A DNA stretch of 64,000 bases from Candidatus Micrarchaeota archaeon (GTDB lineage: Archaea; Micrarchaeota; Micrarchaeia; Norongarragalinales; UBA8480). The notes under the pieces are model-generated. The model saw only the letters and a program-made list of their open reading frames with translations, was not told the origin of the DNA and ran no database searches. Position 1 is the stretch's first letter; the number at the start of each line of letters is the position of its first letter. The DNA is taken from assembly GCA_043805855.1 (NCBI GenBank), contig JAZDHP010000005.1, forward strand, positions 1,132 to 65,131. Reading direction: 5' to 3'. Both the position numbers and the translations under genes were made by a program. Below are positions 54,320 to 64,000 of the stretch, piece by piece.

Positions 54320-54705
54320 CGCTAATCTAATTCTAAATTAAAATAAAAAGTTTCGAAAAAAGTTTTTAAGGCTGATATTTAACGAGCTGTTAAGCAGGAT
54401 TAGAGGGAAGAGAAAAGCCAGTATTAATAATAATTTTGGCAATGGCAGTGTAGATATTACTATGTTTTTTGTATTGACCTTTAGTGACCGTTAGCTCGCC
54501 ACTCGCCCTTACGGGCTCGCGGTTTACACTTCGATTCTATCAAACCCATCTGCTATGGGCGGTCTAAGCTGGCTCGTTTTAGGATTGACTTCGTCCTTAG
54601 ATGCTTTCAGGACTTATCCAAATAGCGCGTGGCTACGCTGCGTGCCGTTTAAATCCAATTGACAACAGCTTAACTAGCGGCGCCGATTCCCCGTTCCTCT
54701 CGTAC

Positions 54706-55404
54706 TTAGGGAGTCTTACCCTCAGCCAGCAATGCACTTCTAGGAGATGCCACCGAACTGTCTTTGTCGCCTTTCTTAACAGCTTTCAACAATTCAAAAC
54801 GTAAAATCTTGTCATTATGACAAGAACCAACAAAATTATAGAATTTCAAAACTTCAGCACTTCCATGAATAATCAAGGCATACATCTTTACAGAAGTGCC
54901 TTTTTTCACGTAAGGGCCGCATACGCGGCCACACTTGATTCCAAAATTCAATATTATTTTTCTTATTTCTTCAAGAACACCTTTATTGGCCTGAGCGAGG
55001 TAAATTCGAATGTTTGCTTCAGGAACTATTCCCATTTTTTCAAAAGAGTTTATACTTCCTTCAGCGTCGAAAAAACCTTTAACATAAGCTGCTTTTACTT
55101 CTTGCGAACCACAATAAATCCAACTTGGAGTTAACCAAGTAGCTTGATCGCCCGTAAATTCAGCTAATTTTGAAAGTTTTTGAAAAACTTCCTTTGATGT
55201 TATACTCAAGCACCAGACACCATGTCTCTTGTCAAGATAAAAACTTGGTTTTTTGTTAAAATTATTTATTATAATTCTAGAAAGAACCTCAAGCCATTCT
55301 TTATTTTTTTGATAAAGCCGAATGCGATAAATTCCTTCTTTAGGAACGATGGAAAAACTTCCATCTCGCAGTGTCCCAATCAAATAAGCTACTTCTTTAT
55401 TCAT
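54706..55404 (-). CDS. LAGLIDADG homing endonuclease (intron-encoded, double-motif)
   Basis: 232 aa. YLIGTLRDGS and KGFFDAEGSI motifs. C-terminus reads into the downstream exon. Confidence 0.75.
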   Translation of the reverse strand: MNKEVAYLIGTLRDGSFSIVPKEGIYRIRLYQKNKEWLEVLSRIIINNFNKKPSFYLDKRHGVWCLSITSKEVFQKLSKLAEFTGDQATWLTPSWIYCGSQEVKAAYVKGFFDAEGSINSFEKMGIVPEANIRIYLAQANKGVLEEIRKIILNFGIKCGRVCGPYVKKGTSVKMYALIIHGSAEVLKFYNFVGSCHNDKILRFELLKAVKKGDKDSSVASPRSALLAEGKTP

Positions 55405-55493
55405 AGCTTGAGAACGGATTTTTAGTTTTTAAATCTTAAGCGACACGTGCTTGCCGGTGTTCCAGTGAATTGTTTACTTTTTGCTAAGAGAGG
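54768..55493 (-). mobile_element. 23S intron 1 (rRNA 3'-proximal) carrying a LAGLIDADG homing endonuclease ORF
   Basis: Conserved block GGGTTCAGAACGTCGCGA is interrupted (E. coli ~2595 region) and resumes at GACAGTTCGGTG. Boundaries +/-10 nt. Confidence 0.6.
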
Positions 55494-55651
55494 TCGCGAC
55501 GTTCTGAACCCAACTAACGTGACTTTTTAATGGATGAACAACCCAACCCTTGGTGGCTCCTGCACCACCAGGATAAGTCGAGCCGATAGCGATGTACCAA
55601 ACCGCGCCGTCGATATATTCAATCGAAAACACCTTTGCAGATGTTTTATCA

Positions 55652-56600
55652 AAACCGCAGAAGAAAAATAAATTCACTTCCGGATTCTGAAACGAACAAA
55701 CGGAGCCTACGAGTCGTATGGTTCAAATGTTCTTGCGTTTCTCCCTTTTTTACAAAGTTAACACTGATCTGAAAAAGCCACTAACAATTAAATTAATTCC
55801 TAGTTGCAATTCTATCTAGTGCAACTTTGCCAAGGAAAAACGAAGACTTTGAATAAACTCGTTGGTTCTATTGCCGAATGTTCATGAAAAATGAACTCTC
55901 GGGCGCGACGAGCCTGTATAGAGTTTTCGATTTCAATTCATCACTAGCAAATTAAAATAATTTGTTTAAAGCATTTAGCTTTTCTGGATGCTCGATGCCA
56001 ATACAATCGCGAAAACGTGCAATGTTCTGCACGCCGCGTATGTTTAGCTGCCCAATGTCTCTGGAATTAGTTATCTTGTTAGAAACTATTCCAAAACTTT
56101 CAAGCATCTGCGCTATAAGCGCAAGTTTCAACGTGTCTTTTTGGTATATTTCAATTCTATAAGACGTTCCAGGTTTTCTTTTTGGAACGCTCCCCTCTGC
56201 GTCGAAAAATCCCCTTATGAAATGTGCTTTCACTTGAAGATCTTCATCCAACAGAGAAGGTAGATTTTGCATTGCGTTTTTTATTTCAAAAAACGCTTGC
56301 TTTGAATATATCCTTACTCGATAAAGTTCGCCTTTTGCCTCGCGTTTTCTAACTTTTGTATATTTGCCATAGACTTTTTCAAATCTAGGTAAAATAGAAT
56401 TAGCGAGCCAAGCGGCTACTTTCTGCTCATACTCAATACAATATTCCCCTCTTGCCTTGCATTGATACAAACAACCATCACCAAAAGCGCCTAGTAAATA
56501 GGCGAAATCTTGATTCATATTGATTGCAAGGAAATGTTGAATTTAAAGCTTGAGCTACACGTCGTTGCCAGTGATTTTGCGAATTGAAAACGAAATTACC
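55652..56600 (-). mobile_element. 23S intron 2 carrying a LAGLIDADG ORF. Inserted after GCTACCCTGGGGGTAA (the I-CreI/I-DmoI-type region of domain V).
   Basis: The exon sequence GGGGAUAACAGG is broken after GGGGGTAA at ~56600 and homology resumes near 55650 (..ATATCGACGGCGCGGTTTGGTACATCGCTATCGGCTC). Boundaries +/-25 nt. Confidence 0.55.
55952..56518 (-). CDS. LAGLIDADG homing endonuclease (intron-encoded)
   Basis: 188 aa. YLLGAFGDGC and RGFFDAEGSV motifs. Confidence 0.75.
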   Translation of the reverse strand: MNQDFAYLLGAFGDGCLYQCKARGEYCIEYEQKVAAWLANSILPRFEKVYGKYTKVRKREAKGELYRVRIYSKQAFFEIKNAMQNLPSLLDEDLQVKAHFIRGFFDAEGSVPKRKPGTSYRIEIYQKDTLKLALIAQMLESFGIVSNKITNSRDIGQLNIRGVQNIARFRDCIGIEHPEKLNALNKLF

Positions 56601-61929: not shown

Positions 61930-62242
61930 AAACACGGAAAATAATTATTAAATTTTCCCAACTAAGTTTATAAAAAAAGCTAAATGCTAATTTTTATTTT
62001 TTTAAAAATAGATATTAGTGGCTACAGGTTATTTAGTAAAAAAGTTAACTTACACCTTTTAAGGTGTAAGGCCTTAACGAAGCGAAAGCTTCGTTAAGTA
62101 AACTGGAAATTTTTGCGATCAATTGGCATATTGAGCTCGCTGAATTTTGTTGGTAACTTTACGTGTGGTAAATTTACCTTACAGTTTTCTTTTTAATTTA
62201 CGAAATAAAATGTAGCAGTGTATTCTCGAAGCTTATCCACGA
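61930..62242 (-). mobile_element. 16S intron B (~310 nt, no ORF), inserted after GCACCACAAG (E. coli ~920 region)
   Basis: The exon continues canonically to CACAAG at 62243. Homology resumes at ..CTCCATAAGCTGCGGTTCAATTGGACTCAACGCCGG (~61925). The intron contains the palindromic 60-nt element shared with 23S intron 3. Lower boundary +/-10 nt. Confidence 0.55.
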
Positions 62243-62384
62243 CTTGTGGTGCTCCCCCGCCAATTCCTTTAAGTTTCAATCTTGCGACCGTACTCCCCAA
62301 GTGGCAGACTAAACGGCTTCCCTACGGCACTGCATTCGCTCGAAGCAAATGCAACGCCAAGTCTGCATAATTTACTGCTAGGAC

Positions 62385-63011
62385 TTTCCGGCACTAGCTA
62401 GCTATATAAAAAGTTAAACCTATTCACGTTCAACGCGCCTGTGATGTCTATTCTAAAGCCACCATCAGAGCATCGACTGAGCGAACAGGCAATTTTATCT
62501 GCTTTTAACACTTTCACTATTTTCGTTATCGCTTTCTCGTTGTATATCTCAAAAGCGATACGTGGTTTGTTTCTCCACAGATAGCTATAAGCTTCTGCAT
62601 CGAATAAACCTTTTGTAAAAGCGCGGAAAAACTTTTTATTACTAAAATTTGGAATCACAAAAGTTTTACTTTTGTTTCTACCTTGGCAATGTAATAATTT
62701 TCTCAATTCAGCTTCAATTTTTACTGAATAAATTGAAATTAAATACATTTCGTGACCGTCGGAATATTTTCTCTTTTTTACTATTGGTTTTTTGCCAAAA
62801 ACTCTTTGCATTAGTTCAGCAATTTCAACTGACCTTTGTAAATATTTTGTACCAATAGAAATTCCGCGGCTTTGAAACCACCCATCTCCGGCAAATAATC
62901 CAAGTAAATAACAAAAATCCTTTGAATACATAGATTAGTTATTTGTATTGAATTATTAAGCTCATCGAGACAGGTCGTTGCCGGTGATTCCGGCTAATTA
63001 GCTAACTAGTG
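62385..63011 (-). mobile_element. 16S intron A (~627 nt) with LAGLIDADG ORF, inserted between GGATTAGATACCCGGGTA and GTCCTAGC (E. coli ~800 region)
   Basis: Exon homology breaks at 63011 and resumes at 62384 (GTCCTAGCAGTAAATTATGC). Confidence 0.6.
62398..62931 (-). CDS. LAGLIDADG homing endonuclease (16S intron-encoded)
   Basis: 177 aa. YLLGLFAGDGW and KGLFDAEAYS motifs. Confidence 0.75.
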   Translation of the reverse strand: MYSKDFCYLLGLFAGDGWFQSRGISIGTKYLQRSVEIAELMQRVFGKKPIVKKRKYSDGHEMYLISIYSVKIEAELRKLLHCQGRNKSKTFVIPNFSNKKFFRAFTKGLFDAEAYSYLWRNKPRIAFEIYNEKAITKIVKVLKADKIACSLSRCSDGGFRIDITGALNVNRFNFLYS

Positions 63012-64000
63012 TACCCGGGTATCTAATCCGGTTTGCTCCCCTAGCCTTCGCCCCTCACCGTCGGACGTGTCTTGGTACGACGCTTTCGCCACTGGTGGTC
63101 CTGCAAGGATTACAACATTTTACCGTTCCCCCTGCAGTACCTCGTACCTCCTCCACTCCCTAGTCTGGTAGTGTTCCCTGCTCGCCTCTAAGTTAAGCTT
63201 AGAGATTTGACAGGAAATTTTCCAAACCGGCTACGGGCGCTTTAGACTCAATATTCGTGGACACCACTCGTGCTACCTGTATTACCGCGGCGGCTGGCAC
63301 AGGATTTACCCACCACTTATTCTCCAAGCTATTCAAGCTTAGTAAAAGAATCCCTTTCGGGAATCACTCGGATTACCCCCGTCACGCTTTCGCGCATTGC
63401 GGAATTTTCGCGCCTGCTGCACCCCGGAGGGCTTGGGCCCTTGTCTCAGTGCCCATCTGGGGGCCATCACTCCCATGACCCCTACTGATTATAGGTTTGG
63501 GGGTCCGTTACACCTCCAACAGCCTAATCAGCCGCAGTCCCATCCTAGAGCGAAACCATTCCAATTCATGGCTCTTTTTACTCTTTCACCATTCCAGGTT
63601 GAAAGAGCTATGCAGTATTAGCGACACTTTCGCGTCGTTATTCCACTCTCTAGGGTAGGTTGACTACGTGTTATTCAGCCGTACGCCAAGACTCGAAGTC
63701 GAGTCTTTAGACTTGCATGGCTTAATCGCAATCCGATAGCGGTGTCCTCCAGCAGGATCAACTGGTGTTGAAGAACCGGTTTACCCGGTTCTCTGCTTGA
63801 GTCGCAATTTCAAGTAGGAATTGACTTTCTCTACTCCGCTAAATTTTTTTCTCACCCATTTCTTTCGAAATTTCAAAAAACCCTACGTCAAACCCAAGAC
63901 GAATGACTACGCGGTAGTTTGACTCGTTTAATTGAGTTTCCATAAAAAACTAGCACAGCTCGTAAACGTTTACTCGCCGAAGGAGAAACCTAAAGGTTCC

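Follow-up and report, generated by a model that had tools for sequence, protein, structure and literature searches.

The closest described counterparts of most of the introns reported here are the bulge-helix-bulge (BHB) introns of archaeal ribosomal RNA (rRNA) genes that carry LAGLIDADG homing endonuclease genes, such as those of I-DmoI in the 23S rRNA of Desulfurococcus mobilis, of I-Tsp061I and of the Thermoproteales 16S rRNA (PMC4496867). Here we analyse a 64,000-nucleotide (nt) stretch of Candidatus Micrarchaeota contig JAZDHP010000005.1 (positions 1,132 to 65,131, hereafter the window), in which the 16S rRNA, tRNA-Ala(UGC) and 23S rRNA genes form a single transcription unit on the minus strand (~54465..63768) that contains 11 introns, nine of them in the rRNAs and two in tRNA-Ala, and five LAGLIDADG genes, one of them on the strand opposite to the rRNA. 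The operon shares with the I-DmoI-type introns the BHB at the junctions, the double-motif gene filling most of the intron, the insertion at conserved rRNA sites, the patchy distribution and the remnants without an open reading frame (ORF), and the model of the antisense protein superposes on I-DmoI, with a template modelling (TM) score of ~0.7, and on I-Tsp061I. It differs from them in its host, which is a mesophilic-type DPANN archaeon and not a member of the Thermoproteales, in the presence of eight BHB introns in one operon, including mini-introns of 32 nt and 104 nt, and in the one gene that runs antisense to the rRNA and seems to have its own promoter.

Group I introns of subtype IB4 have been described at positions 1931 and 1923 of archaeal large subunit (LSU) rRNA by Nawrocki, Jones and Eddy (2018; PMC6125680), where those at LSU 1931 occur in Micrarchaeota alongside BHB introns. 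One intron of the operon lies at the same site, in the same phylum, and also has a LAGLIDADG ORF; contig MNVE01000016.1 of that study is one of the loci compared here (L014). PMC6125680 does not address which way the endonuclease genes of the accompanying BHB introns are oriented.

Two further systems resemble the operon in part. Eukaryotic nuclear rDNA contains group I introns with antisense His-Cys box genes (e.g., L2066; PMC9548176), in which the gene on the opposite strand likewise needs its own transcription signals, but the host is a eukaryote, the intron is a self-splicing group I intron, the endonuclease is of the His-Cys box type, and RNA polymerase II signals and spliceosomal introns are involved. 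We regard this likeness as an analogy in working and not as membership. The rRNA insertions of the candidate phyla radiation (CPR; Patescibacteria) are also found in ultra-small symbionts, are numerous and in several cases carry LAGLIDADG genes at the same conserved sites, but they are bacterial and belong to group I, group II or unclassified types, not to the protein-spliced BHB introns (PMC11270868).

A heavy intron load and the mixture of group I and BHB introns have both been known from this phylum before, and the conserved antisense, apparently self-promoted gene is apparently undescribed. The literature that we searched describes no antisense endonuclease gene in an archaeal BHB intron and no promoter-like modules on archaeal intron endonuclease genes, although such an absence is not proof, subscription papers being under-covered. 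To our knowledge, all described archaeal intron endonuclease genes are sense-oriented. We consider it very probable that the operon combines BHB introns and a group I intron with homing genes, one of which is antisense and probably has its own TATA-type promoter.

The antisense gene and the upstream modules of the endonuclease genes

The initial annotation had proposed five LAGLIDADG ORFs, and all five pass the Pfam gathering scores. They and the elements associated with the antisense gene are as follows, with introns named after E. coli rRNA positions.

56954..57619, plus strand: antisense double-motif LAGLIDADG gene in the 23S 2252 intron, 221 aa, Pfam LAGLIDADG_3 (E=6.6e-16)
62398..62931, minus strand: LAGLIDADG gene in the 16S 801 intron, sense, 177 aa, Pfam LAGLIDADG_3 (E=4.1e-9)
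58015..58479, minus strand: single-motif LAGLIDADG_1 gene in the 23S 1931 intron, 154 aa from ATG 58479, Pfam LAGLIDADG_1 (E=3e-26)
55952..56518, minus strand: LAGLIDADG gene in the 23S 2450 intron, sense, 188 aa, Pfam LAGLIDADG_3 (E=7.8e-16)
54706..55404, minus strand: LAGLIDADG gene in the 23S 2597 intron, sense, 232 aa, Pfam LAGLIDADG_3 (E=4e-15)
56799..57595, minus strand: 23S 2252 intron, 797 nt, canonical BHB, carrying the antisense gene
56897..56929, plus strand: promoter-like module of the antisense gene, ACCGGCACGGAGGTGT followed by TTTAAAAG, which starts 32 nt before the ATG
62970..62985, 58528..58543, 56557..56572 and 55443..55458, minus strand, and 56897..56912, plus strand: 16-nt motif ACCGGCAAYGACGTGT
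56840..56898: double-hairpin module, 59 nt, adjoining the promoter-like module of the antisense gene, with an inverted copy at 62044..62102

The antisense gene was first assigned to the third 23S intron (2449), but it sits in the 2252 intron, the second of that count. Its C-terminal codons lie opposite the 5' BHB strand, and the final 24 nt of the gene fall in the upstream 23S exon, confirming the reported overlap with exon sequence. We found 24 homologs of the ORF with 39-77% identity. The contigs that carry homologs come from two NCBI metagenome-assembled genomes (MAGs; L001 and L004), from ENA metagenome assemblies, from the genomes of 16 GTDB species with Candidatus Micrarchaeota, Bilamarchaeaceae or Aenigmatarchaeota in their titles and from a set of 27 JGI/ENA metagenome contigs. 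The orientation was assigned via blastn exon probes and anchor patterns.

The gene is antisense at all 34 loci with a full BHB and at all seven metagenome loci with one anchor, and no sense copy was seen. The 27 metagenome loci comprise 15 with a full BHB and seven with one anchor, all antisense, and five without an anchor; for loci L001-7, L009-11, L013-16 and L018-22, the gene is on the plus strand and the 23S rRNA on the minus strand. The antisense orientation is the fixed state across Micrarchaeota and Aenigmarchaeota, and the earlier description of it as unusual holds within this operon but not for the endonuclease family as a whole. The constant orientation at all anchored loci excludes an assembly error and a recent accidental inversion. 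Every retrieved relative carrying the antisense gene already has the 2252 intron.

All five endonuclease genes are preceded by the 16-nt motif, which is followed after ~5-10 nt by a TTTAAA-type box. The box starts ~32 nt before the ATG in four genes and ~41-47 nt before it in the gene of the group I intron. The motif occurs six times in the 64 kb, compared to 0.49 expected occurrences, and five of the six are the endonuclease-gene sites. In the homologs of the antisense gene, the best match to a TTTAWAWA-like box starts between -33 and -27 relative to the ATG for 26 of the 31 distinct upstream sequences, which is the geometry of an archaeal TATA box and suggests a putative promoter giving a leaderless or near-leaderless mRNA. 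The 16-nt motif itself may be the site of a common regulator or a product of exchange between the 5' regions of the genes.

Because all five genes share a similar upstream module, we lean toward the endonuclease genes being independent transcription units that would not be read from excised intron RNA. A transcript starting within the intron would be devoid of the 5' BHB strand and could not be cut, so that the 2597 gene, whose stop codon is reached only 58 nt into the 3' exon, could read into this exon. The motif and the TATA-like box stand before five genes that belong to two Pfam families, two intron types and both orientations, and this suggests, as a tentative idea that we hold to be somewhat less likely than its opposite, that the homing endonuclease genes of this DPANN lineage are autonomous promoter-plus-ORF cassettes separable from their host introns. 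Such cassettes would be selfish genes expressed inside rRNA genes independently of rRNA processing.

The double-hairpin module next to the antisense promoter-like module consists of two perfect hairpins, and its inverted copy, which is 90% complementary, is located in the ORF-less 16S 947 intron. No further copy was found in the window, and the module is absent from the 24 related loci searched.

In one alternative, the antisense gene is real but promoterless and depends on transcription that runs on from the plus-strand genes at 52914..54319. These two genes end at 54319, just beyond the 23S 3' end, and transcription continuing from them would run antisense to the 23S rRNA. However, the antisense gene starts 2.6 kb further on, past three other introns, and the neighbours differ among the relatives, yet the TATA-like box at -30 is kept. 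The same module is also borne by the four sense genes, for which it would be pointless if flanking transcription sufficed. We consider read-through the weaker explanation and an improbable one.

BHB introns of the 16S and 23S rRNA genes

Introns were called by pairwise alignment with the relatives L001 and L004 and with E. coli rrsH/rrlH. Six rRNA introns had been claimed; we find nine, two in the 16S and seven in the 23S rRNA gene, where four had been proposed. Eight are of the BHB type (a slash marks the cut within a bulge, a caret the joined exons), the 2252 intron listed above and the following seven, shown together with one short exon.

62386..63012, minus strand: 16S 801 intron, BHB, 627 nt, sense LAGLIDADG ORF
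61915..62234, minus strand: 16S 947 intron, BHB, 320 nt, ORF-less
59227..59330, minus strand: 23S 1328 intron, BHB, 104 nt, ORF-less
58628..58659, minus strand: 23S 1912 intron in the helix-69 loop, BHB, 32 nt, ORF-less
55918..56596, minus strand: 23S 2450 intron, BHB, 679 nt, sense LAGLIDADG ORF
55891..55917, minus strand: mini-exon, E. coli 2451-2477, 27 nt between the 2450 and 2477 introns
55615..55890, minus strand: 23S 2477 intron, relaxed BHB, 276 nt, ORF-less
54764..55494, minus strand: 23S 2597 intron, BHB, 731 nt, sense LAGLIDADG ORF

In all eight introns, the last exon bases pair with the intron's 3' terminus over 4 bp, and this helix is placed between two 3-nt bulges. A cut after the second bulge base results in a mature junction with the length of E. 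coli or of an intron-less relative at all eight sites. The 801 intron has the central helix CCGG:CCGG, the bulges GU/A and AA/A and a 13-bp outer helix, and its mature junction GAUACCCGGGU^AGUCC matches E. coli. The 947 intron combines the central helix GUGG:CCAU with the bulges AU/A and AA/G and a 4-bp outer helix. In the 23S rRNA, the central helix and bulges are CGCU:AGCG with AG/A and AG/U for the 1328 intron and GGAC:GUCU with UA/A and AA/A for the 1912 intron, the mature junction of which has the same length as in L001 and E. coli. The 2252 intron forms ACUG:CAGU with the bulges GG/U and AA/G and outer helices of 3 and 7 bp, giving the mature junction GACUGGG^GCGGUAC. For the 2450 intron we find GGGG:CUCU with UA/A and AU/A and outer helices of 4 and 3 bp, for the 2477 intron GUUC:GAAU with AU/U and AU/A, and for the 2597 intron GUCG:CGAC with CG/A and AA/A and the mature junction GAACGUCGCG^AGACAG.

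The BHB test was limited to the registers permitted by the comparative boundaries, and at any one site a 4-bp helix in a fixed register would arise by chance with a probability of ~2%. An unconstrained scan of the whole operon yields 2754 matches versus ~2100 in shuffles and is uninformative.

The intron at 2252 allows a test by covariation, which was computed for this intron only, the remaining ones having too few homologs. Its BHB is present in all 34 loci collected, representing 20 distinct junction sequences. In these, 90.8% of the cells are paired, compared to 28-49% after a shift of the 3' partner by 1-3 columns; 13 of the 19 pairs have changed on both sides, and none of 500 shuffles matches the observed score. 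The central-helix pair between exon and intron covaries (GC 14, AU 4, GU 2).

The two 16S introns had been placed in the ~800 and ~920 regions and are found at E. coli 801 and 947, the latter being the ORF-less intron given as ~310 nt. Of the 23S sites, ~2250 and ~2595 correspond to 2252 and 2597, whereas ~1917 is 1931, and ~2449 resolves into two introns at 2450 and 2477. The introns at 1328, 1912 and 2477, all three ORF-less, had been missed.

The mini-exon between the 2450 and 2477 introns is covered by an identical 28-nt match to a contiguous exon of L001 and aligns to E. coli ACAGGCUGAU...GAGUUCAU. A second short internal exon, of 19 nt (58609..58627), separates the 1912 and 1931 introns. 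Each of the two short exons provides pairing partners for both of its flanking introns, so that it may be relevant which intron is spliced first.

We rejected group I introns as candidates at three of these sites. For the 2450 and 2477 introns, Rfam gives no group I match at E≤1, and a terminal G is incompatible with their boundaries. The 2597 intron has a C and not a U as exon base, a terminal G is impossible, the BHB is clean, and L001 holds a 35-nt remnant at this site; a known IA3 site is at 2593.

Presence and absence of introns in relatives

The host of the operon is a DPANN archaeon near the Micrarchaeota MAG GCA_053535635.1 (L001), whose rRNA exons are 88-95% identical to those of the window and whose upstream genes (a large SMC-like protein, ScpA and NUDIX) are syntenic. 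L001 has no introns at 23S 1328, 1912, 1931 and 2450. At 2597 it retains an ORF-less remnant of 35 nt (7398..7432) with both termini and the same BHB, in which one central-helix pair has changed from U-A to U·G; this is the textbook endonuclease-loss stage of the homing cycle. The 2477 site of L001 is occupied by an intron of 188 nt, which shares the central helix of the window copy and has a 3-bp outer helix. At 16S 801, the long intron is missing, and a mini-insert of ~60 nt is found ~7 nt upstream instead. L004 does not have the 16S 947 intron, and the mature junction of the window has the same length there. The 947 site of L001 is occupied by a 644-nt intron coding for a 175-aa protein (12845..13372, minus strand) with the Pfam domain HTH_3, which is not a LAGLIDADG protein.

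The absence of four introns from L001 argues that the rRNA insertions are mobile, dispensable elements and not lineage-wide expansion segments. Retained expansion segments, which the initial annotation had named as the refuting outcome, are likewise not what the comparison shows, close relatives being without several of the insertions, and the junction search that it had proposed finds the BHB motif in eight of the nine rRNA introns. After removal of the nine introns, no insertion is left compared to E. coli outside the ordinary variable regions.

An explanation in which the insertions are unspliced, being either retained as expansion segments or excised without ligation to leave a fragmented rRNA, is in our view very unlikely. 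Bacterial intervening sequences and some CPR rRNA insertions do behave in this way, and excision without ligation is compatible with the sequence alone. On the other hand, the insertions lie at intolerant sites, namely the helix-69 loop (1912) and strands of the peptidyl-transferase centre (2450, 2477 and 2597), they come and go among relatives whose rRNA is 88-95% identical, and a BHB, or a group I P1 helix with a terminal G, is present at each register that restores the consensus, with the added covariation of the 2252 BHB.

A probable group I intron at 23S 1931

The intron at position 1931 shows group I hallmarks and has no junction BHB, although all interruptions had implicitly been treated as BHB introns.

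57912..58608, minus strand: 23S 1931 intron, presumed group I ribozyme, 697 nt, sense LAGLIDADG ORF

Its P1 helix (UUAAGGU/...GCCUUAA) pairs the final U of the 5' exon with a guide G, and the intron ends in G (...ACAUG/AGCG). The 3' half scores 35.5 bits against the Rfam family Intron_gpI (RF00028; E=2.6e-7), and the match takes in UCAGAGACUAUA, AAGAUAUAGUCC and a P8 hairpin. All three elements recur in identical form in an intron of locus L005, which passes the Rfam threshold (58.7 bits) and has a nearly identical core. The intron is presumably a group I ribozyme and, judging from these elements, would be self-splicing. It would be a further member of the archaeal IB4 introns, with nothing essential that sets it apart.

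In the PDB, the sequence of the 1931 endonuclease matches I-PanMI and other members of the I-OnuI family (E=1.5e-53). Its reading frame extends upstream to 58575 without a stop, and the shared upstream module at 58528..58543 lies inside this longer ORF. We consider ATG 58479 the likelier start, because the 58479..58575 extension contains the promoter-like module; the LAGLIDADG_1 domain begins ~14 residues downstream of this ATG.

That all rRNA interruptions, including the one at ~1917/1931, are archaeal BHB introns might be expected from the in-register BHB of eight of the nine introns and from the BHB being the classic archaeal type. At 1931, however, just one of the four central pairs forms, and the intron has the U·G pair in P1, the terminal G and the group I R/S core. 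Its endonuclease belongs to an organellar group I family, and Micrarchaeota are already known to have IB4 introns at LSU 1931 (PMC6125680). This makes a uniform BHB origin highly improbable.

The protein encoded by the antisense gene

The antisense ORF matches the Pfam families PF14528 with 58.8 bits (cut-off 22.5) and PF03161 with 26.1 bits (cut-off 25). Among the 24 homologs, the catalytic residue D15 is invariant, and D121 is conserved in at least 90%. The AlphaFold structure is predicted with a mean predicted local distance difference test score (pLDDT) of 94.7 and a predicted TM score (pTM) of 0.90. The Foldseek search gives a probability of 1.00 for the intein endonucleases of TliVMA and PI-PfuI, for I-DmoI and for I-Tsp061I, indicating that the double-domain LAGLIDADG fold (αββαββα), whose absence the initial annotation had named as refuting, is present in the model. 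A PDB sequence search with the profile of the antisense family yields weak intein matches only (E ~1e-3). The ratio of nonsynonymous to synonymous substitution rates (dN/dS) versus the homologs is 0.09-0.16, with dS near saturation. Sequence conservation and the structure model together point to a genuine LAGLIDADG endonuclease gene under purifying selection.

That the ORF is no expressed gene but a relic in decay, a product of chance or the result of an inversion in the assembly, as might be suspected for an ORF that is antisense to a very highly transcribed gene and that reads into the exon while most homologs stop 10 residues sooner, is hardly credible in view of this dN/dS range, the conservation of both catalytic aspartates, the pLDDT of the model, the same orientation in 34 independently assembled loci from different samples and the conserved position of the TATA-like box.

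The tRNA-Ala gene and a family of mini-introns

The two tRNA introns that had been proposed are both confirmed and lie in one tRNA gene, in the spacer between the 16S and 23S rRNA genes.

60962..61225, minus strand: tRNA-Ala(UGC) gene in the 16S-23S spacer, three exons and two introns
61131..61189, minus strand: tRNA intron 1, 59 nt, canonical position 37/38
60976..61108, minus strand: tRNA intron 2, 133 nt, T-loop position 59/60, relaxed motif

The default run of ARAGORN on the window reports no tRNA, the unspliced tRNA-Ala remaining undetected, and the run with introns allowed gives a tRNA-Phe with a 1100-nt intron (20315..21505), which we rejected as spurious. The tRNA-Ala was spliced by hand before the ARAGORN call, and the joined exons are then called as a 72-nt tRNA-Ala with the pair G3:U70. 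Intron 1 has the central helix UUUG:CAGA, and its 3-nt bulges are stacked on the 5-bp anticodon stem; a second outer helix between the strands is not formed (B=0). The cut after the second bulge base corresponds to tRNA position 37/38. The removal of intron 2 restores the T-arm, and in the minimum-energy fold the T-stem and a hairpin of the intron enclose an internal loop of 8x8 nt. The splicing endonuclease of Ca. Micrarchaeum, of the ε2 type, has a broad specificity (PMC3239211, PMC3488258), and the relaxed motifs of tRNA intron 2 and of the 23S 2477 intron fit such an enzyme.

Both tRNA introns and the 23S 1328 intron are built of the same CUUUUCUUUU hairpins (CCUUUUCUUUU-loop-AAAAGAAAAGG). 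In L001, A/U-hairpin mini-inserts of a similar kind occur at three further sites of the 16S rRNA gene (~13667..13944), one of them with a clean BHB. This looks like one mini-intron family that is spreading across tRNA and rRNA genes. The proliferation of tRNA introns, including their transposition in Thermoproteales, has been described (PMC3239211, PMC3488258, PMC4090602) and shares with our case the tRNA with several introns, the non-canonical site, the relaxed BHB and the occurrence of related short introns at several sites. In contrast to those systems, the related mini-introns found here are in tRNA and 23S rRNA genes, a situation of which we have encountered no description.

Operon boundaries and neighbouring genes

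The boundaries of the mature rRNAs are supported by covariance models, exon homology and processing stems.

61332..63768, minus strand: 16S rRNA gene, Rfam SSU_rRNA_archaea 1257.9 bits, model positions 1-1478
54465..60704, minus strand: 23S rRNA gene, Rfam LSU_rRNA_archaea and exon homology, 3' end within ~10 nt on either side
63869..63885 and 61238..61254: arms of the 16S processing stem, a 17-nt inverted repeat, 94% complementary, bracketing the 16S rRNA gene

The spliced 16S and 23S rRNAs have lengths of 1490 nt and 2919 nt, respectively, and each can be aligned with its E. coli counterpart in a colinear way. Mature RNA accounts for ~4.48 kb, and the introns, which make up ~48% of the operon, account for ~4.46 kb. 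The Rfam LSU alignment runs from 60704 down to 56452 only, with the last ~540 model positions squeezed into intron sequence. This end is an artefact, ~2 kb early, because conserved sequences of domains V and VI are found further downstream. The 23S rRNA of L001, the closest relative, aligns as far as 54476, E. coli exon homology supports an end at ~54465, and a 35-nt inverted repeat (54434-54468 and 60692-60726) forms a processing stem bracketing the gene. Exon homology and this stem bear out the operon extent of ~9.3 kb, to ~54460, that had been estimated. With the 23S rRNA truncated by Rfam and the tRNA missed by ARAGORN, standard annotation fails on this operon.

Two tandem paralogs on the plus strand (52914..53621 and 53627..54319), each of ~230 aa and 43% identical to one another, converge on the 3' end of the operon; they match no Pfam family and have no counterpart in the related loci fetched. 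Elsewhere in the window, a plus-strand ORF of 1354 aa (44894..48958) has no Pfam match and is syntenic with a 1331-aa protein of L001, and another very large ORF, of 2426 aa, lies on the minus strand (14660..21940). Most of the window ORFs scanned are without a Pfam family. Two proteins of the window were sought by exact sequence in public assemblies, and no record of either was found.

Proposed mechanism

In the mechanism that we propose, the archaeal RNA-splicing endonuclease would cut each bulge behind its second base and the exons would be joined by an RNA ligase, while the 1931 group I intron would splice itself. The LAGLIDADG enzymes would cut intron-less rDNA alleles, into which the intron would then be copied; at 2252, the intron-less target reads GUUUGACUGGG^GCGGUACGCC as DNA. 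The patchy introns and the ORF-less remnants in the relatives would then show a cycle of gain and loss. The antisense gene would be transcribed from its own TATA-type promoter into a leaderless or near-leaderless mRNA. Because BHB splicing needs only the two intron ends, the interior is free to take either orientation. We can only speculate on how the antisense arrangement arose: the interior may have been inverted between the outer-helix arms, which are an inverted repeat in the DNA, or a promoter-plus-ORF cassette may have been inserted in either orientation, with splicing left intact in both cases.

Several observations weigh against this picture. What we propose on splicing, on the joining of the exons, on transcription of the antisense gene and on the activity of the endonucleases is inferred from sequence. 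The Rfam score of the 1931 intron (35.5 bits) is below the gathering score of 50. In the window copy of the 2477 intron, the adjacent outer helix is not formed, and a strict BHB was not found at the junctions of tRNA intron 2. None of the 24 related loci searched contains the exact 16-nt motif, leaving its promoter role uncertain, and the binomial P of ~1e-18 for the position of the TATA-like box assumes a uniform null and overstates the independence of sequences that share ancestry. No gene for a splicing endonuclease is among the window ORFs scanned. With these points taken into account, we still hold the combination of BHB and group I introns, homing genes and an apparently self-promoted antisense gene to be by far the most probable explanation.

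Implications for DPANN rRNA genes and their introns

The annotation failures seen here, with the 23S rRNA cut by 2 kb and the tRNA missed, affect surveys of 16S and 23S rRNA and the annotation of rRNA in DPANN archaea, and three small introns are invisible without a close relative. The expression of protein genes inside a heavily processed rRNA precursor is poorly understood. BHB introns constrain their termini only, so that the orientation of the cargo is free, and an endonuclease family that is always antisense, under purifying selection and equipped with a positioned TATA-like box points to intron-internal promoters in archaea.

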